Made by a program: the position numbers and the translations under genes | Notes under the pieces: model-generated | Database searches by the model: none | Told to the model about the DNA's origin: nothing | The model's input: only the letters and a program-made list of their open reading frames with translations | Source of the DNA: an uncultured delta proteobacterium | GTDB lineage: Bacteria; Myxococcota_A; Polyangia; Polyangiales; Polyangiaceae | Assembly: GCA_963731595.1 (NCBI GenBank) | Contig: CAVSWE010000003.1 | Coordinates: 300,948-345,914 of the forward strand | Direction: 5' to 3' | DNA: 44,967 nt | Shown here: positions 804-42,820 of the stretch, piece by piece | Numbering within the stretch: the stretch's first letter is position 1 | Layout of the letters: every line of letters starts with the position of its first letter

Positions 804-942
804 CACTCGCCGACGGACCACGCGCTAGCTTCACGGGGCCTCGCCCGGATGACTGCAGCGGCCCGTGGACGGGCCGTTTCAGCCGGGACCGCGAGCCCGG
901 AAACGAGCACGGCGTCGACCACGCCGGGAAAGGAAGCGCACG

Positions 943-1750: not shown

Positions 1751-3765
1751 ACGTGATCTACACCGACGTGCTGGTGATCGGCGGTGGCCTCGCCGGGTTG
1801 CGGATCGGCATCGGTGCCAAACGCCGCGGCCAAGACGTGATCATCCTGTCGCTCGTCCCGCCCAAGCGCTCGCACTCTGCGGCGGCGCAAGGCGGCATGC
1901 AGGCGAGCCTGGGCAACGTCGTCAAGGCGATGGGTGACAACGAGGACGTGCATTTCGAAGACACCGTGCGGGGCAGCGACTGGGGCGCCGATCAGCGCGT
2001 CGTGCGCATGTTCGTCGACACGGCGCCCAAGGCCGTGCGCGAGCTTGCCGCGTGGGGCGTGCCGTGGAGCCGCGTGCAGAAAGGTGACCGGAAGGTGATC
2101 ATCAACGGGCAGAAGGTCACGATCACGGAGCGCGACGAAGCGCATGGACTGGTGATGCAACGCGACTTCGGTGGTACCAAGAAATGGCGCGCCTGCTACG
2201 TCTCCGACGGCACGGGTCACGCCATGCTGTACGCGATGAGCGACCAGGCAATCGCCCACGCGATCAGCGTGCACGAGCGCATGGAGGCCCTGGCGCTGAT
2301 CCACGACGGGTCGCGCTGCTATGGTGCGGTAGTACGCAACCTCGTGACCGGGAAATTGGTCGCGTACGTCGCCAAGGCTACCGCCATTGCGAGCGGCGGC
2401 GCGGGACGCCTCTATCGCGCGACGACCAACGCGGTCATCTGCGAGGGCATCGGCACGGCGCTGGCGTTGGAGACCGGCGTGGCAATGGTAGCCAACATGG
2501 AGGCGATCCAGTTTCACCCGACGGCAATCTTTCCGGCATGCATTCTGGTCACCGAAGGCTGCCGTGGGGACGGTGGATTGCTGCGCGACGCTGCGGGCAA
2601 GCGCTTCATGCCCGACTACGAGCCGGAGAAGAAGGAACTCGCCTCGCGCGACGTCGTATCCCGGCGCATGGAAGAGCACATCCGCAGGGGCGCGGGCGTG
2701 AAGTCACGGTTCGGCGAGCATCTGTGGCTCGACATCACCCTGCTCGGGGCCAAGCACATCGACAGCAACCTGCGCGAAGTGAAGGAGATCTGCCACTATT
2801 TCCTCGGCATCGATCCGATCAAGGATTGGATACCGGTGCGACCGGCACAGCATTACACGATGGGCGGGATCCGGACCGACCACACCGGCGGTAGCCCGAC
2901 GCTCAAAGGACTCTACGCCGCCGGCGAAGCCGCGTGCTGGGACCTGCACGGCTTTAACCGCCTGGGTGGAAACTCGGTCGCGGAAACCGTCGTCGGCGGC
3001 ATGATCGTGGGCGAGTTCATCGCCGATTTCTGTGCTCGTCCCGAGAGCAACCTGCAGTTCTCCACCGGCCTGATCCGCGAATTCCTGGAGCACGAGCAGG
3101 CCAAGCTCGACGCGCTCGCCGGTAACCGGGGCGGGGAAGAAGCCAACGCATTGCGGGTCCGAATGCAGGAGATCATGACGACCAAGGTCGGGATCTTCCG
3201 CACCGGCGGGGAGCTTGCCGCCGCGGTCGAGGAGCTGCAGTCGCTGCTGCGGCGCAGTCAGAACATCGGCCTGCGCTGCACCGCAAGTGGCGCAAATCCG
3301 GAGCTCGTTTCCGCCTACCGGGTCCAGAAGATGCTGCGGCTGGCGCTGTGCGTCGCCTACGGCGCGCTGACTCGGACCGAGAGCCGGGGCGCGCATTTTC
3401 GCCATGACTATCCGCGGCGCGACGACGCCGAATGGCTGAACCGCACGCTAGCAACGTGGAAGAGCGCCGACGACATGCTGCCGACGCTGGCACGCGAATC
3501 GCTTGACGTGATGCAGATGGAGCTGCCGCCGGGGTGGCGCGGATATGGGGCGAAGGACTACGTCGAGCATCCCGACACGGCGCGTCGTACCGCGGAGGTG
3601 GAGGCGATCAGGACCAGGCTCGTCAGTGCCGGCCGCGGGGTCGTACAGGAGGCCCTGATGCCGTACGCTGAGCTCATGCCCGAGCGCTTCCGCGGACCCA
3701 ACGAGCGCATCGATGAGCCGCTGCCACCGTCTCCCGCAGGCCCGCAACGACCGAGCCCGACATGA
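1747..3765 (+). CDS. frdA: Fumarate reductase/succinate dehydrogenase flavoprotein subunit
   Basis: An intact 672-aa ORF. It shows the FAD-binding N-terminus [22 protein letters not shown] (the covalent-FAD histidine context), and [18 protein letters not shown] near the C-terminal domain. Confidence 0.95.
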
Positions 3766-3822
3766 CCGGAGCCACCGCCATGGCCATCCCCGCCGGGGCC
3801 GCCTGAACGACCGCGGCGCAAG

Positions 3823-4536
3823 GTGCGGATTAGCGTCCTGCGCTACAACCCGCAGGAGCGCGGCAGTGTTCCCCGCATGCAGGCCTACGAACTCGAAGAG
3901 GCCGAGGGAATGACGCTGTTCATCGCGCTCAACGAAATCCGCGAAAAGCAGGACGCATCCCTGCAATTTGACTTCGTCTGCCGCGCCGGGATATGCGGCA
4001 GCTGCGGGATGCTGATCAATGGGCGCCCAGGGCTCGCCTGCCGTACGCTGACAAAGAACCTGGACCCGGAGATCACGCTGGCGCCCCTGCCGGTCTTCGA
4101 ATTGATCGCCGACCTTTCGGTGAACACCGGCAAGTGGATGCGGGCGATGAGCGAACGGCTGCAGACCTGGGTGCACATGCGCCAGAAAGAGGTGGACACT
4201 TCCCGGCTCGAGGAGCGCATGGAGCCGGAGCTGGCGCAGAAAATTTACGAACTTGATCGCTGCATTGAATGCGGGTGCTGCGTCGCCGGTTGTGGCACCG
4301 CGCGCATGCGCGAAGACTTTGTCGGCGCGGTCGGCCTGAACAAGATCGCCCGTTTCCGGCTCGACCCGCGCGACACGCGCACCGACGCAGACTTCTACGA
4401 ACTGGTCGGTGACGACAGCGGTGTATTCGGTTGCATGTCCTTGCTCGCTTGCCACGATGTCTGCCCGAAGGAGTTGCCGCTCGCAACGCAAATCGCCTTC
4501 ATGCGTCGCAAGATGGTGAGCATCGGTTGGAAATAG
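3823..4536 (+). CDS. frdB: Fumarate reductase/succinate dehydrogenase iron-sulfur subunit
   Basis: An intact 237-aa ORF with a GTG start. Cysteine motifs are CRAGICGSCGMLINGRPGLAC (2Fe-2S), CIECGCCVAGC and CMSLLACHDVCP (4Fe-4S/3Fe-4S). Confidence 0.93.
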   Translation: MRISVLRYNPQERGSVPRMQAYELEEAEGMTLFIALNEIREKQDASLQFDFVCRAGICGSCGMLINGRPGLACRTLTKNLDPEITLAPLPVFELIADLSVNTGKWMRAMSERLQTWVHMRQKEVDTSRLEERMEPELAQKIYELDRCIECGCCVAGCGTARMREDFVGAVGLNKIARFRLDPRDTRTDADFYELVGDDSGVFGCMSLLACHDVCPKELPLATQIAFMRRKMVSIGWK

Positions 4537-4568
4537 CAGCGTCTTTTTGCACCCTATGTGGAGGAGTC

Positions 4569-5575
4569 ATGAAGGTCGCAACGAAGTTTGCAACACTAAG
4601 TGTCGCACTGGCTAGTTTAGCGATTGCGTTCGGGGCACCCGCACAGCAGCCGATCATCATCAAGTTCAGCCACGTCGTTGCCGTCGACACGCCCAAGGGC
4701 AAGGGCGCGGAGAAATTCAAGCAGCTGGCCGAGGAGCGTACGAAGGGCCGGGTCAAGGTCGAGGTCTACCCGAACAGCACGCTGTACAAGGACGGCGAGG
4801 AAATCGACGCCCTGCAGCTGGGCTCGGTGCAGATGCTCGCCCCCTCGGTGGCCAAGTTCGGGCCGATGGGGGTGCGCGAATTCGAAGTCTTCGACCTGCC
4901 GTACATCTTTGACGACTTCGGCGAGCTGCACAAGGTCACCGAAGGCGCGGTTGGGAAACTGCTGTTCCAGAAACTCGATTCGAAGGGCATCGTCGGTCTT
5001 GCCTATTGGGACAACGGCTTCAAGGATTTCAGTGCCAACAAGCCGCTTAGGCTTCCCGGCGACGTCAGGGGTCTGAAGATGCGCATCCAGTCGTCGAAGG
5101 TGCTCGATGCCGAAATTCGTGCCCTCGGGGGGATTCCGCAGGTGATGGCCTTCTCCGAGGTGTATCAGGCGCTGCAGACCGGCGTGGTCGACGGCACCGA
5201 GAATCCACCGTCGAATTTCTATACCCAGAAGATGAACGAAGTGCAGAAGTATCTGACCCTGAGCGATCACGGCGTCATCGAATACGCGGTAATCGCGAAC
5301 AAGAAATTCTGGGATGGCTTGCCGGCGGATATCCGCACCATCCTCGAAGGCGCGATGAAGGATGCGACCAAATACGCCAACGACATCGCCAAGGAGGAGA
5401 ACGACAAGGCGCTCGCGGCGGTCAAGGCGACCGGGAAGACTGAAATCCTGACGCTCAGCCCCGATGCGAAGGCGGCCTGGAAAAAGGCGCTCTGCCGGTG
5501 CATCGAGAGATGGAAAGCCGGGTCGGCAAGGACATCATCCAGGAGGTCTACAAGGAAACCGGGTTCAAGCCCTGA
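4569..5575 (+). CDS. dctP: TRAP transporter C4-dicarboxylate-binding periplasmic protein DctP, with one apparent -1 frame disruption near 5491
   Basis: GGAGGA precedes the ATG at 4569. A signal peptide and a DctP-like body (IIIKFSHVVAVDTPKGKGAEKF...YWDNGFK) follow. After ...AKAAWKKAL the frame must change to read LPVHREMESRVGKDIIQEVYKETGFKP-stop at 5573-5575. Confidence 0.88.
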
Positions 5576-5624
5576 CCGAGCGTTGCAGCGCCTGATGCGC
5601 GAGCCGGGTTCGACGCAAACCGAC

Positions 5625-5652
5625 GCCGCTGCGGCCCGCAGCGGCTTTTTTG
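5625..5652 (+). terminator. Rho-independent terminator/attenuator between dctP and dctQ
   Basis: A 9-bp GC stem (GCCGCTGCG / CGCAGCGGC) with a 3-nt loop is followed directly by TTTTTT. Confidence 0.7.
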
Positions 5653-5694
5653 TGTGCAGCAGAACGGCGGTCGACCAACCGGGGACGCTTGCGC

Positions 5695-6306
5695 ATGCTG
5701 AAGCTCCTTGACCACCTCGAAGAGTGGCTCATCGCGCTGCTCATGGGCGGCGCGACGTTGATCATCTTCGTGGCCGTCGTTCACCGCTATGCCGCGGGCC
5801 TGCCCATCCCCGTGGTGCAGGACTGGCTGCTTGCGCTCAACCTGTCGTGGGCGCAGGAAGCATGCATCTACATGTTCGTATGGATGGCCAAGTTCGGTGC
5901 CGCTTACGGCGTGCGCACCGGCATCCACGTCGGCGTGGACGTGGTGATCAATCACCTGCCCGACGGCGTGCGCCGCAAGTTCATTCTTTTCGGACTGGGC
6001 GCCGGCGCGCTGTTCACCGGCGTGGTGGCCTCGTTCGGCGCCAGTTTCGTGTGGCAGCTCGCCCACACCGACCAGACCTCGCCCGACATGGAGCTGCCGA
6101 TGTGGCTGGTCTATCTGGCCATTCCCTGCGGCTCGGGGCTGATGTCCTTCCGCTTCCTCCAGGTGGCGTGGAACTTCTGGCGCACGGGCGAGCTGCCGCA
6201 TCACGACCCGACCGACGTGGCGGGCGTCGAAAAAATTGCCGACCAGGACGCCCACGTCGGCCTGGCGCAAGACAATCTTTTTCCCGCGCCGCCTGGCAAG
6301 CGCTGA
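5695..6306 (+). CDS. dctQ: TRAP transporter small permease DctQ
   Basis: Starts MLKLLDHLEEWLIALLMGGATLIIF and is a hydrophobic four-TM type protein. Its position between dctP and dctM fits. The ORF is intact. Confidence 0.85.
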   Translation: MLKLLDHLEEWLIALLMGGATLIIFVAVVHRYAAGLPIPVVQDWLLALNLSWAQEACIYMFVWMAKFGAAYGVRTGIHVGVDVVINHLPDGVRRKFILFGLGAGALFTGVVASFGASFVWQLAHTDQTSPDMELPMWLVYLAIPCGSGLMSFRFLQVAWNFWRTGELPHHDPTDVAGVEKIADQDAHVGLAQDNLFPAPPGKR

Positions 6307-6309
6307 GCC

Positions 6310-7605
6310 ATGACCTCCGCCATCATCTTCGGGCTGTTGATCGCGCTCATGCTCACCGGCATGCCCATCTCGATCGCGCTCGGGCTCACGGTCCTGACTT
6401 TCGTGTTCACCATGACCCAGGTGCCGATCGAATCGGTGGCCCTGAAGCTGTTCACCGGCATCGAGAAGTTCGAGATCATGGCCATCCCCTTCTTCATCCT
6501 CGCCGGCACTTTCCTCACCCATGGCGGGGTGGCGCGGCGGATGATCAATTTCGCCGCCTCCATGGTCGGCCATTGGCATGGAGGGCTGGCGCTCGCAGGC
6601 ATCATCGCCTGCGCGATGTTCGCGCTTGTATGCGGTTCGAGCGTCGCCACGGTGGTGGCCATCGGCTCCATCGTGCTGCCGGAGATGGTCAAGCGCGGCA
6701 TCCCCATGGACTTCGGCGCCGCCGTGATCACCGTCGCCGGTTCGCTCGGCATCCTGATGCTGCCGTCGATCCCCAAGGTCATCTACGCGATCGCCACCAA
6801 CACCTCGATCGGCGCGTTGTTTGTCGCCGGCCTGCTGCCGGGGATCCTGCTGACCACGATGCTCTGCCTGGTCACCTGGTATATCGCCAAGAAGCGCAAT
6901 TACCCGCGGCTGCCGCGCGAAAGCTGGGGCGCGCGCTTCAAGGCGTTCCGAGAGTCCGTCTGGGGCCTGATGCTCGTGGTCATCATCATCGGCGGCATCT
7001 ACTCGGGGATCTTCACCGCCACCGAGGCGGCCGCGATGGCCGCGGTGTACGCGTTCTTCGTGTCGGTGTTCGTGTACAAGGCCATGCCGCTCAAGGATTT
7101 GCGCAAGGTGCTGCTGACCTCGGCCAACATGAGCGCAATGCTGCTCTACATCATCACCAACGCGGCACTGTTCTCGTTCATCCTCACCAACGAGAACATT
7201 CCGCATGCCCTGGCGGACTGGATTATTGCCAAGGATCTGGGCTGGGTGGGGTTCCTGTTGCTGGCCAACGTGCTGTTGCTCCTGGCCGGCAATTTCATGG
7301 ACCCGTCCTCGGTCATTCTCATCATGGCGCCGATTCTCTACCCCGCGGCGATGACGCTCGGGATCAATCCGGTGCATCTCGGCATCCTGATCGACGTCAA
7401 CATGGAGGTCGGGCTCTGCCATCCCCCGGTGGGGCTCAATCTGTACGTGGCCTCGGGCATTTCGCGCCTCGGCATCACGCAGCTGACCAAGGCGCTGGTT
7501 CCCTGGCTCGTCACCATGCTGATCTTCCTGGTCATCGTCACCTATTGGCCGGCGCTGTCGACCTGGCTGCCGCAGAAGATGGGTATGATGGGGCCGTTGC
7601 CCTAG
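6310..7605 (+). CDS. dctM: TRAP transporter large permease DctM
   Basis: An intact 431-aa polytopic membrane ORF that starts 4 nt after the dctQ stop. It has a DctM-like sequence throughout. Confidence 0.92.
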   Translation: MTSAIIFGLLIALMLTGMPISIALGLTVLTFVFTMTQVPIESVALKLFTGIEKFEIMAIPFFILAGTFLTHGGVARRMINFAASMVGHWHGGLALAGIIACAMFALVCGSSVATVVAIGSIVLPEMVKRGIPMDFGAAVITVAGSLGILMLPSIPKVIYAIATNTSIGALFVAGLLPGILLTTMLCLVTWYIAKKRNYPRLPRESWGARFKAFRESVWGLMLVVIIIGGIYSGIFTATEAAAMAAVYAFFVSVFVYKAMPLKDLRKVLLTSANMSAMLLYIITNAALFSFILTNENIPHALADWIIAKDLGWVGFLLLANVLLLLAGNFMDPSSVILIMAPILYPAAMTLGINPVHLGILIDVNMEVGLCHPPVGLNLYVASGISRLGITQLTKALVPWLVTMLIFLVIVTYWPALSTWLPQKMGMMGPLP

Positions 7606-7701
7606 GTCCGGCGGGTCGAATCGACAAACGGCCGCTTTTCCGCGGCTATGTTACTCCGACCCACTTCGCAGATAAACTTCAGTTCTTTTGGCCCAACCAG
7701 T

Positions 7702-7953
7702 ATGCGGCTCGCAAAGTTCGTCAAGGTACGCGAGGAGAAATTTGGCGGCGTCCTCTTCGAGACGCGCTCGGAGAAGGTTTTTACGCTCAATCCAACGGCC
7801 ATGGCGGTCGTGCGCGAGATCGAAGCAGGCCATGACGAGCGCGAGATCGCCATGCGACTGAAGGCGCGCTTTAACGACAGTACCGACGTGATCGAGCGCG
7901 AAGTCGTCGCGTTCATCGCGGAGCTGCGGCAGAGAAGCCTTGTCGAGGGTTGA
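7702..7953 (+). CDS. PqqD/MftB-like peptide chaperone (RiPP recognition element protein)
   Basis: An 83-aa protein, MRLAKFVKVREEKFGGVLFETRSEKVFTLNPTAMAVVREIEAG... The R-E-x-FGgvL segment and overall size resemble the MftB RPExFGAL/PqqD family. Its end overlaps the next gene. Confidence 0.75.
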   Translation: MRLAKFVKVREEKFGGVLFETRSEKVFTLNPTAMAVVREIEAGHDEREIAMRLKARFNDSTDVIEREVVAFIAELRQRSLVEG

Positions 7954-8959
7954 GCGCGTGACAACATTGGCAACGGATAACGGACCCGACTCCGCGATCC
8001 CAGCGACGACCTCGACCTACGCCTGCTCGGAGGACCTCGCCGCGCCACTCTACGTGGCCTGGCAGATCACCAACGAATGCAACCTCGCCTGCCTGCACTG
8101 TATCGAGGAGAGCGGGCCGGGCAAGGCGTTCGCAGATGAGCTCGACGCGGCGCAGATATTCTCGGTGCTCGACCAGTTGCTGGACCACCAAGTCCCCTAC
8201 ATGTCCTTCTCGGGCGGCGAGCCTATGCTGCATCCGCAGTTCTTCGAGATGGTGGAGCACGTCTGCGCGCGTGGCGCCCAGCTCAAGATCGAGACCAACG
8301 GTCATTATCTGTCCGCCGAAAACTGTGCGCGGATGAAGGAACTCGGCGTCAAGGCGGTCCAGGTGAGCCTCGACGGCGCGTCCGCCAAGACGTTCGAGCG
8401 TATGCGCGTGCGCGGGAACTTCGATCGCACGCTCGATGGCCTGCGCAACCTTCGCGCGGCAGGCGTGCCCGTGGAGATTAACTTCTCGCCCGCCTGCTTC
8501 AACGTCCATGAGATCGGCGCGGTCGTCGACCTCGCATACAAGCTGGGCGCATACAGCTTCTACACCGGGACGCACGATGTACACCGGCAACGCCGTCAAG
8601 GCTTGGCGCCACCTGGAAGTTTCGGAGCCGAGCAATACGAGGCGTTCTTCGCTGTTCTGCGGCAAAAAGCCGAGGAGTACCACGGCCGCATGCGCGTCTA
8701 CTTTCACGAGGCGGGGTTGCTCGAGGAGCTGCGTTATCGCCTGCAGCACCCGGCTGCGCTGCTGATCGTGCTCCCGAACGGCCTGGTCAAGCTCATCAAC
8801 GCCTTGCCCTTCGTGTGCGGCGATTTTCGCCGCCAGACGCTGCGGGAAATCTGGGCGAATTTCCGCCGCGCCTGGCACGACCCGCGCGTGGCACAGTTCG
8901 TCGACGAGCTTGGCACCGACCCGGGCGGACACGGACGCTGCACCAATGGGTCTATCTTT
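7940..8959 (+). CDS. Radical SAM peptide-maturase-like protein, paralog 1 (MftC/PqqE-like N-terminal half, no SPASM cysteine cluster), frame-disrupted
   Basis: Motifs present: WQITNECNLACLHC (CxxxCxxC), FSGGEPMLHP, LKIETNG, VQVSLDGAS. Around 8568-8627 the paralog-conserved segment TGRTMYTGNAVKAWRHLEVS lies in another frame, implying two compensating shifts. The C-terminal LIVLPNGLVKLINALPFVCGDFRRQTLREIW is conserved. The true stop is uncertain: 8957-8959 if shifted at aatggg, otherwise the ORF runs to 9112. The start is TTG 7940 or GTG 7958. Confidence 0.75.
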
Positions 8960-9897
8960 GACTGCGCTGCCCGTGCGATCCGGCCGTTCGGCGCGCACGG
9001 CGCTGCACCGGCTGCTCGCCGTTTGCCGCCTGGTGCGCTACCGGTTTTTCCTATATGCCGGGCTGCTGCCGTATCTGCTCGGCGCGGCCTGGGCCTACGC
9101 TCGCGCTGGTAGCCTTCGACGCGCCGATTTTCTGGAGCGGCCTCGCGGGTGTAGTGCTCGCCGTAATCGGCGTCGAGGCATTCAACGAGTATTTCGATTC
9201 ACGCATGGGCACCGACCGCGTCTTCAACCCGGCCGAACTCCCGCCGATGTCTGACGCAGTGCTCTGGTTGGGCATTGCGGCCTTCGCCGGCGCGCTGGCG
9301 GTCGGCATCTACCTGACCGTGCGTGGCGGCTGGCCGATCCTGGCCTTCGCACTCCTGGGTGGAACGGCGGCGATCTTTTATGTGGCGCCCCCGATACGCT
9401 GGGCCTATCGTGGCCTGGGCGAACTGGTCATCGCCCTGTCCTACGGGCCCTGGATGGTACTGGGCAGCCTCTACCTGCAGAGCCAGGCGCTGTCGTGGGG
9501 GGCGCTCTTCGCGTCGCTCGTACCGGGATGCCTGATCATGGCGCTCGCGGTCGTCAACGCGATTCCCGATTACCACCAGGATCGCTTGGTCGGCAAGCGC
9601 AATCTCGTCGTGCGGCTCGGCCGCCGGCGCGCGGTTTGGCTGTATCTTGCCCTTGCGGCAGGCGGACTGCTGGTGGTGCCGGTCGGCGTAGCGAGCGGCA
9701 TCTCCCCGCCACCTGCCTGGCGGCCTTACTGGCGGTGCCGCTGCTCGTGGCCAGCGGCCGCTGCGCGCTGCGGCACTTATGAAACACCGCGCGCCTTTGT
9801 TCCCGCCGTGCGCAGCATCGTCGGCTGCTATCTGGTCGCCGTCGTGCTGTTCACCGCCGGCGTCCTGTGCAGTGGCGTAGCGTCCTTGCGCCCATGA
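8946..9897 (+). CDS. UbiA-superfamily (MenA-like) polyprenyltransferase, frame-disrupted
   Basis: First Asp-rich motif is AFNEYFDSRMGTD (NxxxDxxxxxxD form). Second motif is IPDYHQDRLVGKRNLVVRLG (MenA-like DxxxDxxxGKxxL). The protein is multi-TM and hydrophobic. Frame changes are needed near 9099, near 9700 and near 9775, where the alternate frame gives the hydrophobic LAALLAVPLLVASG. Its TGA overlaps the next ATG (ATGA at 9894-9897). Confidence 0.75.
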
Positions 9898-10856
9898 ACT
9901 GGATCGATCGCCTGCGCGCGCCGCTGTTCGTGTCCTGGCAGATCACGCGCGACTGCGACCTGTGCTGCCTGCATTGCTGCACCGAGTCGGCGCCGGGGAA
10001 GCGGTTGCCGGACGAACTCGACGCTGCCGAAGCGACGTGGCTGGCCGAGGAGATCGTCCGCAACGCAGTGCCCTACGTGATGCTTTGCGGCGGCGAGCCT
10101 TTGGTCGTGCCGCACTTTTTCGCCCTTGCCGAAGTCGCTGGGGCGGGCAGGCGTCCAGCTGAAGATCGAGACGAACGGGCAGCGCTTCGATGCCAAACTC
10201 GCCGCCCGGCTCGCCCGCCTGCCCGTCCGGTCGGTACAGATTAGCCTGGACGGCGACACACAGGAGGTCTACGAGCGCCAGCGGCCCGGGCGGCTTCGCT
10301 CGCCAAAGCCCATGCGGCCTGCCGCGCCGCTCGTGCGGCCGGGCTGCCGCTCGAAGTCACCTTTGCGCCGACCCGGCTCAACATTCACCAGGCCGGGCCG
10401 GTCATCGAGCGGGCGCGGGCGCTTGGTGCCTTTCGCTTCAATACCGGGCGGCTCATGCGCATCGGCACCGCCGCGCGGCTGTGGGAGAAGCTCGAGCCTT
10501 GCCGAGGAGCAATACCGGGAATTCCGCGCCTGTTGAACCGCATGGCCCGGCGCCTAGAGGGGCAACTGGAGATTTGCCATGCTCCGTTTGACCTCGCGGA
10601 AGGGCTGCGCGGCAGCCTCCAGAACGCCGCCGGCAACCCTGCTCGTGCTGCCCAACGGCTGGGTCAAGGTTGCCGCGGCACTGCCGCAGATCTGCGCTGA
10701 CTTGCGCCGCCATAGCCTTGACGGAGGCCTGGGAGGCCTACCGCAACGCGTGGCGGAGTGATACAGTGCTGGCGGAAGTACGGCGCGCGGTCGCCGATCC
10801 ATCGCGTCACGCGCGAGGCCAACAGTTGGCAGTTGTTGCCCGTCGCCCCGGTGTGA
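9894..10856 (+). pseudogene. Radical SAM peptide-maturase-like protein, paralog 2, needing about 6-7 frame changes to read
   Basis: Recognisable pieces lie in alternating frames: MNWIDRLRAPLFVSWQITRDCDLCCLHCCTESAPGK, LCGGEPLVVP, VQLKIETNGQRF, VQISLDGDTQEVYERQRPG, AAGLPLEVTFAPTRLNIHQAGPVIERARALGAFRFNTGRLMRIGTAARLWEKLEP, EEQYREFRA, LNRMARRLEGQLEICHAPFD, LLVLPNGWVKVAAALPQICADLRRHSLD, EAWEAYRNAWRSDTVLAEV. The stop is at 10854-10856 or 10859-10861. Confidence 0.7.
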
Positions 10857-10871
10857 CCTGACGGAGGGAAA

Positions 10872-11026
10872 ATGAGCGAGTTGAACCTGACGATCGAAGC
10901 CGCCAAGACCGGCGACGAACGCAAGACCGATACGGTGCAGCCGGCGCAAAAGCCGCATGGGAAACGCCCAAGCTCGAGGACGTGTCCGAGCAGGTGATGG
11001 CCCAACCGTATATCCGCTTCACCTGA
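10872..11026 (+). CDS. Candidate precursor peptide (PqqA/MftA-like), with one frame disruption in an A4 run
   Basis: GGAGGG sits 3-4 nt before the ATG at 10872. Frame 0 reads MSELNLTIEAAKTGDERKTDTVQPAQK, and after the aaaa run at 10948-10951 the -1 frame reads AAWETPKLEDVSEQVMAQPYIRFT-stop at 11024-11026. The second frame has no start codon of its own upstream. The gene lies between radical SAM paralogs 2 and 3. Confidence 0.6.
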
Positions 11027-11045
11027 GATACCCAGAACTTTCGCA

Positions 11046-12013
11046 ATGCCGGGGCGTTCGGTAGAAGAGTACCGAGCACCCCTTTTTCTTGCCTGGCAGC
11101 TGACCAACCGCTGCGCTGCGCGCTGCATCACCTGCTGCGAGGAATCCGGTCCCGATAAGGCATGGGGCGATGAGCTTTCCCGTGACGAGGCGATCGCGCT
11201 TGCACGGCGCATCGCGGCGTTCGGCATCGCCTACGTTGCCTTCGGCGGCGGCGAGCCGCTAGGTGTACCGCATTGCTGGGATCTGCTCGAGCTGCTCGCC
11301 GCGGCCGGCATCGCTCTTAAGATCGAGACCGACGGCAGTCACATCGACGCTTCCGCGGCCGATCGGCTCTCGGCGCTCGGCGTCGAGTGCATCCAAATTT
11401 CGGTCGACGGAGCGACAGCGGCGACGCATGAGCGCGTGCGTCCGGGATCGAGCTTCGCCGCGGCGGTCGCCGCCATCGAGCGACTGGTCGCGCGCGGTCG
11501 TGCACCGCAATTGGTGTTCGTTCCCACCCGCTTCAACTGCACGAGATCGTCGCCGCGTTCGATCTGGCGGCAACGCTCGGCTGCGGCGCATTCGTCACCG
11601 GCCCGCTGATGCGCATCGGCCGCGCCGCGGGCGCACTGGCAGCGCATCGCCTGCAGCAGACGAGGAGTGGCGCGCCGCGGTTACCGCGTTGAGAGAACGC
11701 ACCGCGTCGATGCGGCCCCGGAATGGCCCTTGTCGATCTATCCTTGGGACATTCGTTGCGGAGATGGAAACGCGGCTCGAGCGACCGCAGGCGATGCTGC
11801 TGGTCGTGCCCAACGGCAAGGTCAAGCTGCTCAATGCGCTCCCGTTCGCCGCCGCCGACCTGCGCCGCGATTCGCTCGAGGACGCGTGGCGGGCCTATCG
11901 CGACGCCTGGCATGCGCCGGAGGTGCGCGAATTCATCACCCGCTGCCGCAGCCAATCCAGCGCTGCTGATGCACGCCAATGAGACATGGCCGATGGTTAG
12001 GAACGACGGTTGA
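11046..12013 (+). pseudogene. Radical SAM peptide-maturase-like protein, paralog 3, needing about 5-6 frame changes to read
   Basis: Recognisable pieces: APLFLAWQLTNRCAARCITCCEESGPDK, FGGGEPLGVP, ALKIETDGSHI, IQISVDGATAATHERVRPGSSF, FVPTRFN then LHEIVAAFDLAATLGCGAFVTGPLMRIGRAAG, DEEWRAAVTALRER, EMETRLERPQAMLLVVPNGKVKLLNALPFAAADLRRDSLEDAWRAYRDAWHAPEVREFI. The C-terminus is either ...SAADARQ (stop at 11982) or NPALLMHANETWPMVRNDG (stop at 12013). Confidence 0.7.
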
Positions 12014-12112
12014 CCCCCGCGCCAGAAACCCCAATACTTAAGCGGCTGTGATTGAATACTTACCCGTCGTAGCGAAGCTTTTGAGGGCCCGGGAGCCCGC
12101 TGATCGGTTGCG

Positions 12113-12442
12113 ATGCATCGACTGACATTGGGACTACTCGCCGCCTGCACCGCTGGCGCAATCGCGGTTGCGGCCCAGCCAGCGCCGGACAGCTCCCGCG
12201 GCGAGCTCCTCTATTCCACCCATTGCATCGGTTGCCATAGCGCGCAGGTGCATTGGCGCGAAAAGAGGCTGGCGACAGACTGGGCAAGTCTCAGGATGCA
12301 AGTATTTCGATGGCAGATGAACACGGGCCTCGCCTGGAGCGACGAGGACATCGTCGCTGTCACCCGCTATCTGAACGATCTCTACTACCGTTTTCCGACG
12401 CCGGACAGGCCGGTGGCATTTCAGGGGTCGTCGGGTAACTGA
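12113..12442 (+). CDS. Small periplasmic monohaem cytochrome c
   Basis: An intact 109-aa ORF with a signal peptide (MHRLTLGLLAACTAGAIAVAAQP) and a single CIGCH haem-binding motif. Confidence 0.8.
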   Translation: MHRLTLGLLAACTAGAIAVAAQPAPDSSRGELLYSTHCIGCHSAQVHWREKRLATDWASLRMQVFRWQMNTGLAWSDEDIVAVTRYLNDLYYRFPTPDRPVAFQGSSGN

Positions 12443-12585
12443 TCCCGGGCTGCCGCGTCAAATCGATGTGAGTCGCTCGTTCTTTGCCGTCGACAAATGC
12501 TCTAGCTCGGGAGGCGCGCGCATACGACGGTCGAGTCCATCTCCCAGCGAGTGATCACTCGTGCCCCCAACGCGAGTGTACTGTT

Positions 12586-13095
12586 CTAGCTTGGCCGCCG
12601 CTGCAATAACGTGCCCAGGAGCAGAGCGAAGCCCAGGAAAATGACAAGCGACGCTTGCGCCAGAGTAAGTCCCAGGATCTTAAAGGACGTATCGGAACAG
12701 TCTCCCGTGGCATGCAGCAGTTGGGTCAGTACTTCGCTGACCGCCATGGTGTCCAGCATGTAGGCCAGGCCGGCACTGCAAGAGGCGACGCTTGGTGCCG
12801 GAAAAAGTTGCAGGTACGTCTGATAGCCGGCGACCCCGAGTCCTTCCAACGTCAGGATCGCAGCCATCCAAAGGAGAGCCCGCTGTACTCGACCTTGGGG
12901 CCGCGCCACGGCTGCGGCAAAGAAGACGGGTATCAGGCCAAGATACGTGAGCCGTTGGATGATGCACAAGGGGCACGGTTCGATCCCCAGTATGTGCTGG
13001 ACAAAAAAGCTTGCACCGACAAGACCGGTGCAGGTCACTCCAAGCAAGATCGAAACTTGGGCAGGAGAAGTCAGCACACGCGAAAGCCTATTCAC
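12586..13095 (-). CDS. dsbB: Disulfide bond formation protein B
   Basis: An intact 169-aa four-TM protein with CPLCIIQR in the first periplasmic loop and a second Cys pair region (SCSAG ... DCSD). Confidence 0.85.
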   Translation of the reverse strand: MNRLSRVLTSPAQVSILLGVTCTGLVGASFFVQHILGIEPCPLCIIQRLTYLGLIPVFFAAAVARPQGRVQRALLWMAAILTLEGLGVAGYQTYLQLFPAPSVASCSAGLAYMLDTMAVSEVLTQLLHATGDCSDTSFKILGLTLAQASLVIFLGFALLLGTLLQRRPS

Positions 13096-13511
13096 GGAAA
13101 TCGGCCGGCAATGCAGCTCCCCGCGGGACCCAGTACGCTAGGGGAATTTTGCCACGTCCGAGCCTGATCTCAGAAGTTTCTCCTCCGCAAAGGGCTGCTT
13201 CACCGCCCCAGGCCCGACGCGCGGAGCTTGGCCGCAATGGCTGGTGAATTTCGGCTTCACGACCCGGTGATCGCCCGGAGGCGCATCGCGAAATGCGCCT
13301 GGTCTGCGCCAAAGTGGCGCGAACGGCGCCTGGTTGACAGTCGGGGAATCGCCTGGCGGTTGCATGTTAAATCAATAACTTGCGACGCTTACCCTCTTAG
13401 TTGCGCATGAATTAGCGTCGTTGGAGTTTCCTTGAGGTACATCAACAGCCCAGATACGGCTTGGCTATAGGCTTCGTATTGCGGTGCAACAAAATCACGT
13501 CAGGAGCGCCC

Positions 13512-14327
13512 ATGGAGTTTCAAGGAAAAGTTGCGGTAATTACCGGTGCGGCCAGCGGCATCGGACGGGCGGTGGCGTTTGAATTGGCGCGCCGCAACGT
13601 GCGCGCGATGGCGCTGGTGGACATAGGCGAGAACATCGATGGCGTCGCCGCAGAAGTCAATGCGAAGGCCGGCCGTCAGGTCGCCTACCCTTACCGGGGC
13701 GATACGACCGACGAGGCGTTTCGCGCTTCGGTTTTCGATTCCATCAGTAGCCAGTTCGACACCGTCACGATGTGCGTGCCGGCCGCCGGCATCACGCGCG
13801 ACGAACTTGCAGTCCGTATCGACAAGATCACTGGCAAGGCACGGATCTATCCGGTGGACCGGTTCAAGCAGGTCATCGATGTGAACCTCGTGGCGCCGGT
13901 CTACTGGGCGCTCGAGATGATCGGACGCATCGCCGAGAATCGCGCCGCCTGCGGCCTCAAGCGATGGCAGCCGTCGGAGGGCATGCAAGGGGCCATAGTG
14001 TTCATCGGCTCAGTTTCTTCGCAGGGCAATCGTGGCCAGATCTCCTACGCCAGCGCCAAGGCCGGCCTCGAGGGAGCGGCCGCGACGATTATGAAGGAGG
14101 CGGTTTTCTACGGCGTTCGCTGCGGGCTTATCCACCCGGGGTTCACCGACACACCTATGGTGCGCGCAATGGGTGATGACTACATCAGCAAGCACATATT
14201 ACCTTTCACCCAATTGAGCCGGTTGATTCGCCCCGAGGAAATTGCCGATGCGATCTGCTTCATGCTCGCCAACTCGGCGGTGAGCGGCGAATTGTGGGCG
14301 GACGCAGGCTGGCATGCACCCGCGTAG
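13512..14327 (+). CDS. Short-chain dehydrogenase/reductase (SDR) family oxidoreductase
   Basis: CAGGAG precedes the ATG at 13512. The cofactor motif is MEFQGKVAVITGAASGIGRA (TGxxxGxG), and YASAKAG is the catalytic YxxxK. The ORF is intact. Confidence 0.88.
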   Translation: MEFQGKVAVITGAASGIGRAVAFELARRNVRAMALVDIGENIDGVAAEVNAKAGRQVAYPYRGDTTDEAFRASVFDSISSQFDTVTMCVPAAGITRDELAVRIDKITGKARIYPVDRFKQVIDVNLVAPVYWALEMIGRIAENRAACGLKRWQPSEGMQGAIVFIGSVSSQGNRGQISYASAKAGLEGAAATIMKEAVFYGVRCGLIHPGFTDTPMVRAMGDDYISKHILPFTQLSRLIRPEEIADAICFMLANSAVSGELWADAGWHAPA

Positions 14328-14631
14328 CCGCGGTGACCTGGCAGCTTCGAGCGAGGGTCCTACCGCTGCTCCGCCGACGCGGGATGAGGCCGTCGACACG
14401 GAGGGTGAATCCGAGGTGCCGGCGCGCGGCGCCCAGCGGCAATGGCCCGGAACGGATCCGAACCAGTTTCCTTGGACTAAGGCTCTCGCCGGCGATCCCA
14501 GTCTTGTCGCGCCGGTGATTGCCTCGCCGGAGGAGATCCTCCGTGCCCGGGAAATACGAGAGCAACTCAAGAAGACATACTTAGATCGCCCAAGCCAACC
14601 TTGCTCCCTATGGTGGGTTGATATTGACTAA
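14314..14631 (+). CDS. Hypothetical protein (Pro/Ala/Glu-rich N-terminus, C-terminus ...EEILRAREIREQLKKTYLDRPSQPCSLWWVDID)
   Basis: This is an open frame only, overlapping the SDR stop by 14 nt. I do not recognise the family. Confidence 0.25.
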   Translation: MHPRSRGDLAASSEGPTAAPPTRDEAVDTEGESEVPARGAQRQWPGTDPNQFPWTKALAGDPSLVAPVIASPEEILRAREIREQLKKTYLDRPSQPCSLWWVDID

Positions 14632-14904
14632 GTAACCCGTAGCCGGGTCGCCAATTTTCGGGCCAATGTTAGACGAACCCGCCATCTTGTGCCGTGAACA
14701 GCAGATCCCATGGACTGTCGCCAGTGCCGATCCAATATGAAATCAATCCTTCTTCTCGACCTTACGCGAACTCAGCGAGAAAATGTAGCACTTGCAGTAT
14801 TGCAATAGGGTTTCGGGAGCTTGGGCTGTTGCACCGTGGACATTATGGCGACGCAAGGAGCTCCAGCGCGAGGGCTCGAGGCAACCGATGATCTGCGAAC
14901 GCTC

Positions 14905-16553
14905 TTATGGACGCGCGGCGTCGATGCGCTCGCGGACCGCCCGCCACGCATCCGGCTGGCGCGCCTGCTCGAGCGGCGCTTCGCTATCGTAGGCGACGAC
15001 GAACGCCTGCTCCTCCGGCGCGAGGGGCTCGCACGTACGTAGCTGATAATCGAGCACCGCCAAATCGGCGTCCGAAGCGTCGGATCCTGCCGCGGCACGC
15101 TGCGCTATGCGCTCCCGAAGGGTCGAGTGCGCGCCATGAAATCCACGATCACGAAGGCGATGCCGAGCTCGATCGCGAGATTGCGGAAGAGGTCTCGCTG
15201 CCAGCGGTTGAGGAAAGTCGCGTCGATAATTGCAACGAAGCCGGCACCGACCACCTCTCGCGCCAGCGCGCCAAGCTCCCGGTATGTCGCCTCCGTCGCG
15301 CCGGCCGCGTACAGGCCACGATCGATGCCCGTCGCACCGCGCTCGTGGGCGTCGAGCCCGTGCATGCGCTTGCGCTCGACGTCGCTGCGGATTCGCACCG
15401 CGCCGATCGTCTCCAGCAGCACTCTGCGACAGGGTGGTCTTGCCGCAGCCGGCGAGCCCGTGGGTGACGAGGAGCGCGGGCCGTGTCGGCTGCGCGTAGC
15501 TTCGCGCCAGAGTCACGTGCGCGCGGTATTCGGCAAGCAATGCGCGTCGCGCTGCGCCGGCTTCGAGCTGTGCCGCGCGCAGCCGCGCGATCTTGGCGCG
15601 CACCATCGCGCGGTACACGAGATAGAAGCGCAGCACGGTCAGGCCAGCGTAGTCCCCCGTCCGCTCCAGGTACGCGTTGAGGAAGCGACGGGCCAGATCG
15701 ACTCGTCCGCGATAGTGGAGATCCATGACCGTGAACGCGACCTCGTTCATCACATCAATCCAGCGCATCGCCTCGTTGAATTCGATGCAATCGAAAATGA
15801 CAAGCTCGTCGTCGATGCGCGCGATGTTGTTGAGATGCAGGTCGCCGTGGCACTCGCGGATGAAGCCTTCCTTGCGCCGCCGCAGGAATGCGCCTTGGCA
15901 CGCGGCATGCTCGCGGTCGGTCCAGACGCGGAGCTCTTCGAGCTCGTCGCGTTCCGCCGCCGTCGCCACGTGCGGTCGGAACTGCGCGAAATTTTGCCGC
16001 GCGACGCGCAGAATCTCCTCCGGCGAGCCGAATGTGCCGTCGCGAGGAACGACACCGCTCGAGTCGTGAAAGGCGGCGACCTTCGCCGCCAGCGCATCAA
16101 TGTCGGCGGGTGAGAGCTCGCCGCGCGCCAGGATGCGGCTGGCCAGCGCGTCCTGCGGGAACTCGCGCATCTTCACCGCGTACTCGAGTGCCGGACCGTC
16201 GCCGCCGAGGACCGGAGCGTCAATGCTGCCCGTTATCGGCACGACGTCGAGGTAGAGCGCGGGTGCAAGCCGGCGATTGAGGCGCAACTCCTCTGTGCAG
16301 AAGAATCGCCGCGCCGCGAGTGTCGTGAAATCGAGAAAGCCGAAGTCGACCGCTTTCTTGATCTTGTACGCGTAGTGCCCGGCCAGGAAAACGCAGGAGA
16401 TGTGCGTTTCCAGCCGCTCGACGCGCCGCAGTCCGGCCCGAAGACCGCGGGACGGGAGAGCGCCGCCAGCAGTCGAACCTGATCCGTCTCGGTTGCGACG
16501 AGGGTCGTGGCCCGCTCGGGCGGCATGCGGTGGAAGATGCGTGGTGGCATCTG
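14905..16553 (-). pseudogene. Bifunctional aminoglycoside-phosphotransferase-like / P-loop (AAA_33-type) kinase, with at least 3 frame disruptions
   Basis: Pieces in different frames: ...LLAALSRPAVFGPD; VERLETHISCVFLAGHYAYKIKKAVDFGFLDFTTLAARRFFCTEELRLNRRLAPALYLDVVPITG; HGDLHLNNI (kinase catalytic loop); THGLAGCGKTTLSQ (P-loop); LLETIGAVRIRSDVERKRMHGL...FVAIIDATFLNRWQRDLF. Confidence 0.7.
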
Positions 16554-16569: not shown

Positions 16570-17051
16570 TCAGCCCGTGAACTCATGCGCCCTGACCTGG
16601 CCGTGCTGGCGGCGAGCGACGTCTTTCAGCCGCGCGGTGAGGCTCGCGAAGCCGTCGCGCAGCGCGACATACACTTCCTCGTCGTGGTCGCAATTGACGA
16701 CGAGCTCGTGGCCCGGAAGATCCGTGAGGTCCGGATTGCCACCATGCGACGGCATCTGTCGGACACCCTTAAGCGCATTCTTTTCCGCACCCGCCCGGTG
16801 CTCCAACTTCAGCCGGTCAAGCAGCGGTGCCGCGTCCGGAAGGCGCACACGCAAAAGCTGGAACAGATACTGATCCTCCTTGGGATGGTGAAAGCACTCG
16901 CGGAATGCATCGATGTAATAGATCATCGCCCCAGCACGCCGAAATCCGACGTGGCTCCCCGGTCGCGGATCTGGTGCACCAGATAAAGCATGCCGTGCAA
17001 GACCGCCGCCAGCGAACGGTGTTCGTCCTGAATGGCGCGGTTCGCCTGCAT
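16570..17051 (-). CDS. Hemerythrin-like (HHE cation-binding) domain protein, with one frame disruption near 16925
   Basis: Reads MQANRAIQDEHRSLAAVLHGMLYLVHQIRDRGATSDFGVLG, then shifts to AMIYYIDAFRECFHHPKEDQYLFQLL...LEHRAG. The start is 26 nt downstream of the reconstructed hemN stop. Confidence 0.6.
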
Positions 17052-17076
17052 ATTCGTCCTTCTTTCCCGAATGCAT

Positions 17077-18478
17077 CAGATGATGCGCGAGTTGCGCGCC
17101 GCCCACGCTGCTCACGCAGGTAACGGTCGAATACCATCGCCACCGTGCGAACTAAGAGCCGACCGCGCGGCGTCACGTGGATCGCGTCCGATGCGATTTC
17201 GACCAACCCGTCGTCGGCCAGCGGTGCAAGTGACTTGAGCTCGGTTGCGAAGTAATCGCGGAACGCGATGGCGTACGCGCTCTCGACGCGCTCGAACGAG
17301 ACGGTGAATTGGCACATGAACGCGTGGATCACATCGCGCCGCAAAACGGTCGTCGGCAGAAAGCCGCCAGCCGCGAAAACATGGTAGCGCATCGTCGTCG
17401 AGCCGGGCGTAGTAATCATCCAGAGTACGCAGATTCTGGCTGTAGGACGCACCGACCTTGCCGATTGCGGAAATACCGAATGCCAAAAGATCGCAATCAG
17501 CGTGCGTCGAGTAGCCTTGAAAATTGCGGTGCAGCTTGCCTCACGCTGTGCGACAGCAAGCGCGTCGTCGGGCCGCGCGAAATGATCCATGCCGATGTAG
17601 ACGTAACCGGCGCCGGTCAACTTTTCGATTGCAAGCTCAAGAAGGGCTAACTTGGCCTCCGCCGACGGCAACTCCGCTTCGCTGATGCGCCGCTGCGGCT
17701 TAAACAGATGTGGCACGTGCGCATAGCTGTATAGCGCAAGTCTATCCGGCGCACCGTCGAGCACCTTGTCCAACGTGACGGCCGAAGCCGGCCAAAGTCT
17801 GCCGCGGGAGACCATAGATTAAGTCGATGTTTAAGGAGCGGAAGCCATTCGCACGTGCGGCGTCGAGTACAAATGCGAGTCTCGGCTTCCGATTGAATGC
17901 GGTTCACCGCCTGTTGTACGGCTGGGTCGAAGTCCTGTACGCCGATGCTCATCCGGTTGAAGCCAAGCTCCGAGAGAAGCTTAACCGTCCCGGCGACGCC
18001 AAATGGCGGGGGTCGACTTCGATCGAGCATTCGGCGTCAGGCACAAACGCAAAGCTGTCGTGTAGGACACGCCATAGCAACTGTCATTTCCTCGGCCGAC
18101 AGGAACGTCGGCGTGCCGCCGCCCCAGTGCAACTGTGTGACGGGGGACGCCGAATCGACGAGCCCCGACACGATTGCGACCTCCCTGCCGAGATAGTGGA
18201 TATATTTTGCGGAGCGGCCATGGTCCCGGGTCGTGACCTTGTTGCACGCGCAGTAGTAGCAGATGGTGTTGCAGAACGGCACGTGCACGTACAGCGACAG
18301 CGGCTGCGGCGCGCCGGCTCTGGCGGTTGACAAGCGCGTTAGCGAGATGGTCGGCGGTGAATGCTTCCGTAAAGCGATCTGCCGTCGGATAGGAGGTGTA
18401 GCGCGGCCCAAAGCCATCGTACTTGCGGATCAGATCCGAGTCGAACGGGAGGCCTGTAGTCGGCGTGCAGTGAACCAT
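17077..18478 (-). pseudogene. hemN: Oxygen-independent coproporphyrinogen III oxidase (radical SAM HemN), needing about 6 frame changes to read
   Basis: HemN-collinear pieces: FDSDLIRKYDGFGPRYTSYPTA; PLSLYVHVPFCNTICYYCACNK (CxxxCxxC); LHWGGGTPTFLS; [25 protein letters not shown]; [22 protein letters not shown]; GYVYIGMDHFARPDDALAVAQREA; GISAIGKVGASYSQNLRTLDDYY; RDVIHAFMCQF; GLVEIASDAIHVTPRGRLLVRTVAMVFDRYLREQ; the terminal ARNSRII-stop lies in a third frame. Confidence 0.85.
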
Positions 18479-29156: not shown

Positions 29157-29522
29157 TGGCGAGCATCGTTGCGGGGCCCGGCGCCTAAGCGACGGGCTTA
29201 GTCTTACTCTCTAAGCAGCTCCGATATTGAATGCGTGCGCTAGCGTACAGACGCAACTGGGTATCGCGCCTATCTTTCGCATAAGAGGGGAAGGGCATCT
29301 TTCTCGCTAAGGGGCCGCTATTTCGATTCGCTTGACACTGAGGGTCATTGAGCTACAAGAAGTGCACTCTTCGTGCTTTAGCCTTTGAAGGGCCGATGAA
29401 AATCTCGCTCGCTGTACTTCGTAACGGTAGCACGGGAGACCGCGTGTCGCGGCTGGGATTCTCGTCCCGGCCGCATTTTCGTCCGTTCGTGCGCCCACGG
29501 TTTGCGACGAGAGGCCAAACCA

Positions 29523-42264: not shown

Positions 42265-42405
42265 GCTCGGTATTCTACCTTTGACCAGAGTCCGTGTCTC
42301 GTCTCCTCGTCTCCGCTCGACTTGCCGCCGGTGGCTGCAATCTCTTGCGGTTTCAACCGGTCAATGCAACGCACTATAGCCTGAGCAATCAGAGGAGTGT
42401 TGCAG

Positions 42406-42700: not shown

Positions 42701-42820
42701 TGGCGAAACGTCTCGAGCCTTCGTGGCGGCACCTGCGTGAGCGCGTCGGTACCGGCACTGCCTCGGACGCAACGTTCCGAGCGCCACACAAATGCTCAAC
42801 CGATTGCGCCGACACGCAGC

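Follow-up and report, generated by a model that had tools for sequence, protein, structure and literature searches.

A small gene of an undescribed peptide family, probably broken by sequencing error, encoded with PqqD, radical-SAM and UbiA proteins in respiratory operons: a candidate precursor of a prenylated respiratory molecule

The head groups of ubiquinone, menaquinone, plastoquinone and rhodoquinone derive from small-molecule metabolism, and the peptide-derived redox cofactors pyrroloquinoline quinone (PQQ) and mycofactocin are soluble. Prenylated ribosomally synthesised and post-translationally modified peptides (RiPPs) exist as well, for instance ComX and the cyanobactins, and the leader of lasso peptides is recognised by a RiPP recognition element (RRE) through a Y-x-x-P-x-L motif. 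Here we describe a 51-residue peptide encoded at positions 10872 to 11026 of a stretch of 44,967 nucleotides from an uncultured bacterium (contig CAVSWE010000003.1, positions 300,948 to 345,914; hereafter the window), where it is surrounded by genes for a PqqD-family chaperone, three radical S-adenosylmethionine (rSAM) proteins and a membrane prenyltransferase of the UbiA superfamily. The region is almost certainly a genuine precursor-peptide gene, and the peptide is very probably a substrate of the PqqD and rSAM proteins. As an explanation of the whole we somewhat favour a precursor of an undescribed family, broken here in the assembly, from which a prenylated respiratory molecule would be made.

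The start of the gene is marked by a Shine-Dalgarno sequence GGAGGG (10863 to 10868, forward strand, found by direct reading), which lies 3 bases ahead of the ATG at 10872 and is common to five of the six aligned relatives (the sixth, L009, has GGAGCG). From this ATG the first frame reads MSELNLTIEAAKTGDERKTDTVQPAQKPHGKRPSSRTCPSR and stops early, as an open reading frame (ORF) of 41 codons (10872 to 10997), and the -1 frame, open from 10862, continues as ...AAWETPKLEDVSEQVMAQPYIRFT up to the stop codon at 11024 to 11026 (its end was summarised as ...AWETPKLEDVSEQVMAQPYIRFT). The second frame has no start codon upstream of the conserved segment: the GTG of V42, ten codons before the end, is the earliest one in it, and no ORF of at least 20 residues with a start of its own shares that stop. 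The Shine-Dalgarno sequence, the two frames and the lack of a separate start for the second had been read in the original prediction, made from the letters of the window, and they hold, as does its proposal that one extra base joins both frames into a peptide of 51 residues, a length that matches the relatives. The position of the missing base had to be revised. It had been taken for an A in the A4 run at 10948 to 10951, whereas an alignment with six intact relatives places it in codon 28/29, where the relatives read AAG CCG GCR TGG (K-P-A-W) and the window reads AAG CC-G CAT GG, that is, a G lost near 10955 (CCGGCA to CCGCA). The CAAAAG run is identical in the intact relatives L004 and L001 (the latter being the syntenic comparison locus, from MFD03346, a metagenome-assembled genome (MAG)), which argues that A4 is the native state. 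Proline is found at position 28 in 45 of the 81 species-level loci described below, and the repaired peptide most likely reads ...PAQK-P-AWETPK... rather than ...QK-A-AW..., still with 51 residues. Residues 1 to 27 form a variable N-terminal part, followed by the conserved module W30-x-x-P33-x-L-E-D-V-S-E-Q-V-M-A-Q-P-Y-I-R-F-T51.

The joined peptide matches 1,361 database proteins. The best 120 of the 1,361 show 67-94% identity over 100% of the query and are nearly all exactly 51 residues long; all are unnamed, and several are from Casimicrobiaceae MAGs. A scan of the GTDB species representatives found 137 loci, 80 of which were fetched, and these are all from MAGs (mostly Casimicrobiaceae and Burkholderiales, with some Steroidobacteraceae and other Gammaproteobacteria). 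The orthologs carry the 51-residue peptide unbroken, and the W-x-x-P...QPYIRFT segment, on whose conservation the original prediction had depended, is kept in every related cluster. W30, P33 and the tail VSEQVMAQPYIRFT are invariant in the 81 species-level loci, save for V38I (once) and Q41E (twice), and the last 14 residues show one conservative change at each of two positions only; the first 27 residues vary among the GTDB loci. In the same 81 loci the codon of Y47 is TAC (65) or TAT (16), that of F50 is TTC (52) or TTT (29), and the gene ends in TGA (58), TAA (16) or TAG (7). Since the invariant residues use freely varying synonymous codons and all three stops occur, selection acts on the translated peptide and not on an RNA or DNA element, and this pattern indicates that the peptide is translated and under strong selection. 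An Rfam scan of positions 7000 to 13000 found no RNA family, and a promoter and terminator scan no convincing attenuator 3' of the peptide gene.

The family reaches well into other phyla. The peptide profile finds 96 clusters at 50% identity, and a profile of the distant members collects 2,710 proteins, including ones from MAGs of Thermodesulfobacteriota, Omnitrophota, Planctomycetota (Sedimentisphaerales and Phycisphaerales) and Aminicenantia; the JGI metagenomes hold at least 600 peptide matches. The shared C-terminus is W-x-[KT]-P-x-L-E-D-V-S-x-x-[VI]-M-A-Q-P-Y-I-R-F-T-stop, with 17 of the last 22 positions conserved. We distinguish two forms of the accompanying cassette, type II with three rSAM genes (the Casimicrobiaceae type, including the window) and type I with one, found in the distant members. 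The two differ systematically at positions 40 and 41 of the peptide, which are Gly-Lys in type I (55 and 48 of 59, respectively) and Glu (109 of 109) and Gln (102 of 109) in type II; this suggests that the extra type II rSAM paralogs may act on, or need, Glu40 and Gln41.

Neither the repaired peptide (at E <= 0.1) nor any of 22 distant members gave a significant match to a Pfam or NCBIfam model, and the distant members did not match the PqqA model even at E <= 10. Literature searches for the core motif, for PqqD together with UbiA and radical SAM, for UbiA in RiPPs, for PqqD alongside Nqr and for fumarate reductase in Casimicrobiaceae found nothing relevant. With no Pfam or NCBIfam model and no paper found, the peptide family and its four-gene cassette are undescribed. 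The original prediction had called the peptide PqqA-like, and as an analogy this stands: a W-x-x-P...D...Y register is common to both, and hhalign gave a probability of 29% against a Klebsiella pneumoniae PqqA sequence. As a statement of membership it fails, as neither the repaired peptide nor the distant members match a PqqA profile and the E-x3-Y pair is lacking; an invariant Met at Y-4 (Met43, opposite the PqqA Glu in the hhalign register) stands in place of the cross-linked Glu.

The adjacency of the peptide gene to genes for PqqD, rSAM paralogs and a prenyltransferase, also part of the original prediction, was confirmed. All five genes lie on the forward strand. The first encodes the PqqD-family chaperone, an RRE protein of 83 residues (7702 to 7953), which is intact and 95% identical to PqqD of L001 (PF05402 was found on the orthologs). 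It is followed by rSAM paralog 1 (7958 to 8961; ortholog of 333 residues), frameshifted near its 3' end and with compensated shifts at 8567 to 8670, by the gene for the MenA-like membrane prenyltransferase (8946 to 9897; ortholog of 316 residues), frameshifted near its 5' end, and by rSAM paralog 2 (9894 to 10861; ortholog of 320 residues), with about eight frameshifting 1-bp insertions or deletions (indels). The rSAM and UbiA coding regions overlap. On the other side of the peptide gene, rSAM paralog 3 (11046 to 12013; ortholog of 320 residues) begins 19 nucleotides past the peptide stop codon and carries about seven such indels.

This type II order (PqqD of 83 residues, rSAM of 333, UbiA of 316, rSAM of 320, peptide, rSAM of 320) is complete in 63 of the 81 genome loci, including L001 and L002, and a PF05402 gene is part of the cassette in 63 of the 81 type II and in 20 of 20 type I loci. 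The type II neighbours were read by tblastn with reference proteins, clustering of the longest ORFs being polluted by antisense ORFs in this GC-rich DNA. Contig ends truncate most of the incomplete type II loci; L014 and L042 are apparent degenerate second copies, and L019, L025, L033 and L057 are without cassette genes. Of the type I loci, all 20 whose downstream sequence reaches far enough show the complete order (peptide, PqqD, one rSAM, UbiA), and 8 of 18 have a polyprenyl-diphosphate synthase. Beyond this synthase, no protease, hydroxylase, methyltransferase, decarboxylase or exporter was found conserved with the cassette.

Some loci depart from these two orders. A second copy of the peptide gene, with cassette fragments or none, was seen in L014, L042, L019, L033 and L057, in the first two directly 3' of frdCAB; such copies could be duplicates in decay or additional precursor genes that stand alone. 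In the metagenome locus L094 (2403-3134 and 3752-4504) the peptide gene is flanked by genes for a U32-peptidase-family and a DUF169 protein instead of PqqD and rSAM, with UbiA and a polyprenyl synthase further downstream; the U32 family includes the O2-independent ubiquinone hydroxylases UbiU and UbiV. In L126 (9938-11393) nqrA-F and NuoF/NuoG-like genes are followed by the peptide gene and a gene for a different radical-SAM protein of 421 residues (tblastn match to HemN), and neither PqqD nor UbiA was detected there.

The three rSAM paralogs are 37-45% identical to each other, and each keeps the CX3CX2C and GGE motifs. PF04055 (cut-off 29.5 bits) was found on all three intact orthologs and, in the window, on rSAM1 (89.8 bits), the 5' fragment of rSAM3 (74.3 bits) and fragments of rSAM2 (31.0 and 21.4 bits). 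Among six cassette rSAM proteins the cysteines of CX3CX2C are the sole invariant ones, a single C-terminal cysteine (PF[IV]CGD) being missing in rSAM3. No SPASM Pfam match and no SPASM or twitch auxiliary-cluster cysteines were found in the cassette rSAMs, whose C-terminal halves resemble the SPASM/twitch region minus its cysteines. The nearest characterised relatives are MftC, AhbD, NirJ, SkfB and PqqE, all matched far below the curated cut-offs. As ahb-like genes lie near some cassette loci, we asked whether the rSAMs are AhbC, AhbD or NirJ and rejected this, the scores being 95-125 bits against cut-offs of at least 500 and PqqD and the peptide always accompanying them. Genes resembling the alternative, siroheme-dependent haem pathway (a uroporphyrinogen methylase/HemD fusion, NirD/L-like siroheme decarboxylase domains and an rSAM-NirDL fusion) occur within a few kb of type I cassettes in L085 (2151-4296), L101 (923-3015) and L166 (1-2106).

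The cassette prenyltransferase scores 79.6 bits with PF01040 (cut-off 34.2) and has both Asp-rich motifs (N-E-Y-F-D-x5-D and D-Y-H-Q-D). MenA and UBIAD1 are its best family and structure matches, UBIAD1 (8djk) being the only match in the PDB. Like MenA, it is often followed by a long-chain polyprenyl-diphosphate synthase and adjoins menaquinol-type respiratory enzymes. Unlike MenA, it is always coupled to peptide, PqqD and rSAM genes and falls under every MenA cut-off: MenA models gave 100-107 bits, and the equivalog cut-offs were missed (NF004751, 107.5 versus 264; TIGR00751, 69.6 versus 102.15). Across phyla the cassette enzymes are 42-57% identical. L103 also has a canonical MenA that passes its cut-off (127 versus 102), together with a polyprenyl synthase, and since the two proteins are only about 33% identical the cassette enzyme forms a separate clade; as both occur in L103, we rejected the possibility that the cassette enzyme is simply the MenA of the organism.

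The cassette is found in respiratory operons. In the window it is preceded on the same strand by frdCAB (943 to 4536), encoding a Wolinella-type quinol:fumarate reductase (QFR) with a di-haem cytochrome b subunit C (flavoprotein gene at 1747-3765, end of the Fe-S subunit gene at 4536, one frameshift in FrdC near 1508). The FrdC ortholog of L001 matches PDB 2bs2_C at E = 1e-78 and NCBIfam PRK13553 with 378 bits (cut-off 187). Between frdCAB and the cassette lie dctPQM (4569 to 7605, forward strand), genes of a tripartite ATP-independent periplasmic (TRAP) transporter named by Pfam family (DctP, DctQ and DctM on the L001 orthologs, transferred by tblastn); these occur only sometimes in the other type II loci. 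FrdAB-type (SdhA/B-like) genes are found within 8 kb in 27 of the 81 type II loci, in at least three arrangements. In type I loci an nqr gene (for NADH:quinone oxidoreductase, NQR) lies within 600 bp upstream in 18 of 36; the cassette is placed between nqrE and nqrF in L088, L089, L091-L093 and L095 and after nqrF in others, after nuoLMN in L112, and among SdhA-like, CCG/HdrB-like and HdrA-like genes in L086 and L103.

Three further observations concern these neighbours. The Wolinella/Campylobacter-type frdCAB, followed by dctPQM, is found in a betaproteobacterial MAG (L001, 68-3659). The NqrA-like subunit of cassette-carrying nqr-like operons (L085, 4602-5918; L088, 5639-7027) retains an RnfC-type 4Fe-4S C-terminal region and matches both NqrA and RnfC models, all below cut-offs, and looks like part of an NQR/RNF intermediate complex. 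Finally, a small c-type cytochrome (CxxCH, about 101 residues; 12137-12442) is encoded directly 3' of rSAM3 in the window and in L001; it was not detected beside the cassette in any other fetched locus, and its dN/dS is 0.9 with very few substitutions.

How does this compare with the described pathways? With the PQQ pathway the system shares a short precursor with a C-terminal part that hardly varies between taxa, a PqqD-family chaperone encoded beside a PqqE/MftC-related radical-SAM enzyme, and a product presumed to be a cofactor and not an antibiotic. It differs in that the loci examined hold no pqqB, pqqC or pqqF, only a PqqD-like gene, in the absence of SPASM auxiliary-cluster cysteines from the rSAM, and in the obligatory membrane UbiA. 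As for mycofactocin, MftC is the best or second-best NCBIfam match of all cassette rSAMs (111-122 bits), and an RRE partner, an invariant C-terminal end at a fixed distance from the stop and a redox-metabolism context are common to both. However, the rSAMs stay far under the MftC cut-off (TIGR03962, 265 bits) and have no SPASM domain, the tail is ...IRFT and not the ...GVY of MftA, homologs of MftD, MftE and MftF are absent, and the proposed tailoring is prenylation versus glycosylation. By analogy with MftA, the invariant Thr that ends the peptide, always equally far from the stop, hints that its free C-terminus may matter. A likeness to lasso peptides is limited to the mode of chaperone binding: in 12 of 22 members W-x-[KT]-P-x-L weakly matches the beginning of the lasso model for the paeninodin family, and the best NCBIfam matches of the cassette PqqD are the lasso (47.8 bits) and PQQ PqqD models, but all these scores are below cut-offs and there is no lasso cyclase or leader protease. 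By these comparisons the cassette would encode an RRE/rSAM pathway to a peptide-derived cofactor, with an unprecedented membrane-prenylation step, that falls outside the PQQ, mycofactocin, SPASM-maturase and MenA families.

We propose the following course. The PqqD-family chaperone would bind the W-x-x-P-x-L leader motif (as its weak similarity to lasso leaders and PqqA suggests) and present the invariant MAQPYIRFT tail to a SPASM-less rSAM, which would modify it; most phyla would use one rSAM for this, and the Casimicrobiaceae-type cassette three paralogs. The dedicated MenA-like UbiA would then add a polyprenyl chain, and the product would be a membrane-anchored, peptide-derived molecule serving quinone-dependent complexes, i.e. 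fumarate reductase here and NQR, complex I and Psr/Hdr-type enzymes elsewhere. The modified residue, the action of UbiA on the peptide and a redox-active product are steps that we infer. We regard the chances that the product is a prenylated respiratory cofactor as about even. A bolder form, which we put forward as a tentative possibility with the odds somewhat against it, is that of a new class of respiratory molecule, with a ribosomally encoded, rSAM-tailored head group derived from ...MAQPYIRFT and a polyprenyl tail from the MenA-like enzyme, that would carry electrons in the membrane or be a cofactor required by NQR, complex I and fumarate reductase in uncultured Planctomycetota, Omnitrophota, Thermodesulfobacteriota, Aminicenantia and Casimicrobiaceae. 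In the Casimicrobiaceae the product might supply a low-potential partner for the Wolinella-type menaquinol:fumarate reductase in a betaproteobacterium.

Several points weigh against this proposal. The chemistry is read from genes and sequence, and the named matches of the rSAM-based search include no cultured carrier, all being MAGs. Apart from the polyprenyl synthase the cassette has no conserved companion gene for a hydroxylase, methyltransferase or decarboxylase, so that a true quinone head group would have to be made by unlinked enzymes. A few distant members have Phe in place of Tyr47, and the Tyr therefore need not be the redox centre. The substrate of UbiA, moreover, could be a small molecule and not the peptide.

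Among the alternatives, the one that survives best, unlikely as we consider it, is that the peptide keeps most of its 22-residue module and works as a prenyl-anchored micro-subunit or assembly factor of respiratory complexes and not as a diffusible cofactor. The conservation of 17 of the last 22 positions is more than one modification site needs, no dedicated protease was found, and the gene can lie inside nqr operons, all of which would suit such a role. Nevertheless, the same peptide occurs with QFR, NQR, complex I and Hdr/Psr-like enzymes, for which a molecule of a shared pool fits better, and conservation in PqqA and MftA also reaches well past the modified residues. Less probable still is that the product is an ordinary lipopeptide, secreted as an antibiotic or signal, say, and without a respiratory role. 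The combination of a PqqD chaperone, one or more rSAMs and a short precursor is the classic RiPP layout, and ComX and the cyanobactins are, as here proposed, ribosomal peptides that meet a prenyltransferase; these, however, involve soluble ABBA or ComQ-type prenyltransferases and short prenyl donors, in contrast to an integral-membrane UbiA with a polyprenyl synthase nearby. In addition, the cores of bioactive RiPPs usually diversify, whereas this one is invariant over at least four phyla, no exporter, protease or immunity gene is conserved nearby, and the cassette is located inside nqr operons and beside frd, nuo and polyprenyl synthase genes.

The remaining alternatives concern the break in the window. 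The single-base break read in the original prediction is confirmed, but it is not special to the peptide gene, the whole neighbourhood being full of 1-bp indels. The window and L001 are 89% identical at the nucleotide level over 879-13170 and 93% over 13313-14665, and isolated 1-bp indels relative to L001 break FrdC, the 3' end of DctP, rSAM1, UbiA, rSAM2, rSAM3, the peptide, a hemerythrin and the housekeeping gene hemN, with about eight frameshifts in rSAM2, about seven in rSAM3, one in the peptide and about 11 in hemN (7-9 each for rSAM2, rSAM3 and UbiA). The hemN gene (oxygen-independent coproporphyrinogen oxidase; 16717-18478, reverse strand) is spread over at least three frames by about 11 single-base indels, and the adjoining hemerythrin gene over two; the syntenic L001 has both genes unbroken. 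The frameshifted genes show no relaxed selection: their dN/dS is 0.10-0.19, against 0.08-0.14 for the intact genes of the window and 0.10-0.23 for the same genes between intact genomes. In rSAM3 seven frameshifts coexist with a non-synonymous divergence (pN) of 0.021 and about 50 substitutions, mostly synonymous, a pattern that is not the product of real decay. Split genes were found in 16 of 39 Nanopore-derived loci of the MFD catalogue and in 2 of 42 other, apparently short-read, loci, both apparently degenerate second copies. Only Nanopore reads went into the MFD catalogue, which was assembled with Flye --meta and one Medaka round without short-read polishing, and its authors mention Nanopore-associated errors in low-coverage MAGs (PMC12313526). 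The truncated 41-residue ORF is recorded from a single NCBI/ENA contig, and none of the seven possible repaired 51-residue sequences is in the protein collection. We conclude that the break is in all likelihood a sequencing error and that the source assembly is probably an indel-rich, Nanopore-only metagenome.

It speaks against a sequencing error that the indels are uneven, with none in frdA, dctM and the SDR gene and 7-11 in the rSAM genes and hemN. Such clumping fits local problems of coverage or strain mixture; it would also fit a local decay of an 'anaerobic' module, to which we give a small probability. According to the latter explanation the frameshift is real, and the cassette, hemN and hemerythrin are a decaying pseudogene cluster in this organism, a reading about as improbable as the secreted lipopeptide or slightly more so. 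The frameshifts indeed concentrate in rSAM1-3, UbiA, the peptide, hemerythrin and hemN, which could all form one anaerobic module, with frdA, dctM, PqqD, dsbB and the SDR gene intact. Yet dN/dS in the broken genes is at the level seen between intact genomes, the indels are far too many per substitution, as rSAM3 illustrates, and such breaks are frequent among the Nanopore MAG loci but few among the apparently short-read ones. Programmed -1 ribosomal frameshifting joining the two frames in vivo, for which only the A-rich CAAAAG just 5' of the junction could be cited, was rejected as having a negligible chance, there being no X-XXY-YYZ slippery heptamer at the junction and no ortholog that needs one (the tail is in a single frame in 168 fetched related loci and the full 51 residues in nearly all), and the neighbouring genes would require dozens of such events.

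In the same comparison with L001 (879-18608), synonymous divergence (pS) differs more than ten-fold between genes (cytochrome c 0.036, PqqD 0.086, rSAM3 0.148, rSAM1 0.46, hemN 0.58), which suggests mosaic recombination within the locus. Elsewhere in the window, an ORF of 460 residues (14905-16287, reverse strand), kinase- or ATPase-like by eye (it has a GCGKTT P-loop), runs on in a different frame at 15105-15422 and is probably another frameshifted gene. Further downstream are genes for a four-repeat beta/gamma-crystallin protein (25464-26867, reverse strand), two Crp/FNR-type regulators (27669-28454, reverse strand, and 29502-30161, forward strand) and a protein with HTH_38/HTH_23 DNA-binding domains (42397-43176, forward strand), perhaps a transposase fragment. 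The window as a whole yielded no tRNA gene.

On the most conservative reading, our analysis brings to light a family of small genes, thousands in number and so far without annotation, and a four-gene cassette not described before, which both deserve a name and hidden Markov models, and the broken copy in the window illustrates how indel errors in long-read MAGs conceal small genes and whole pathways from annotation. If the proposed pathway is true, the combination of a ribosomal peptide and a membrane MenA-like prenyltransferase in nqr, frd and nuo operons would unite the worlds of the lipid quinones and of the soluble peptide-derived cofactors, and the product would be a new component of the anaerobic respiratory chains of abundant soil and sediment lineages.

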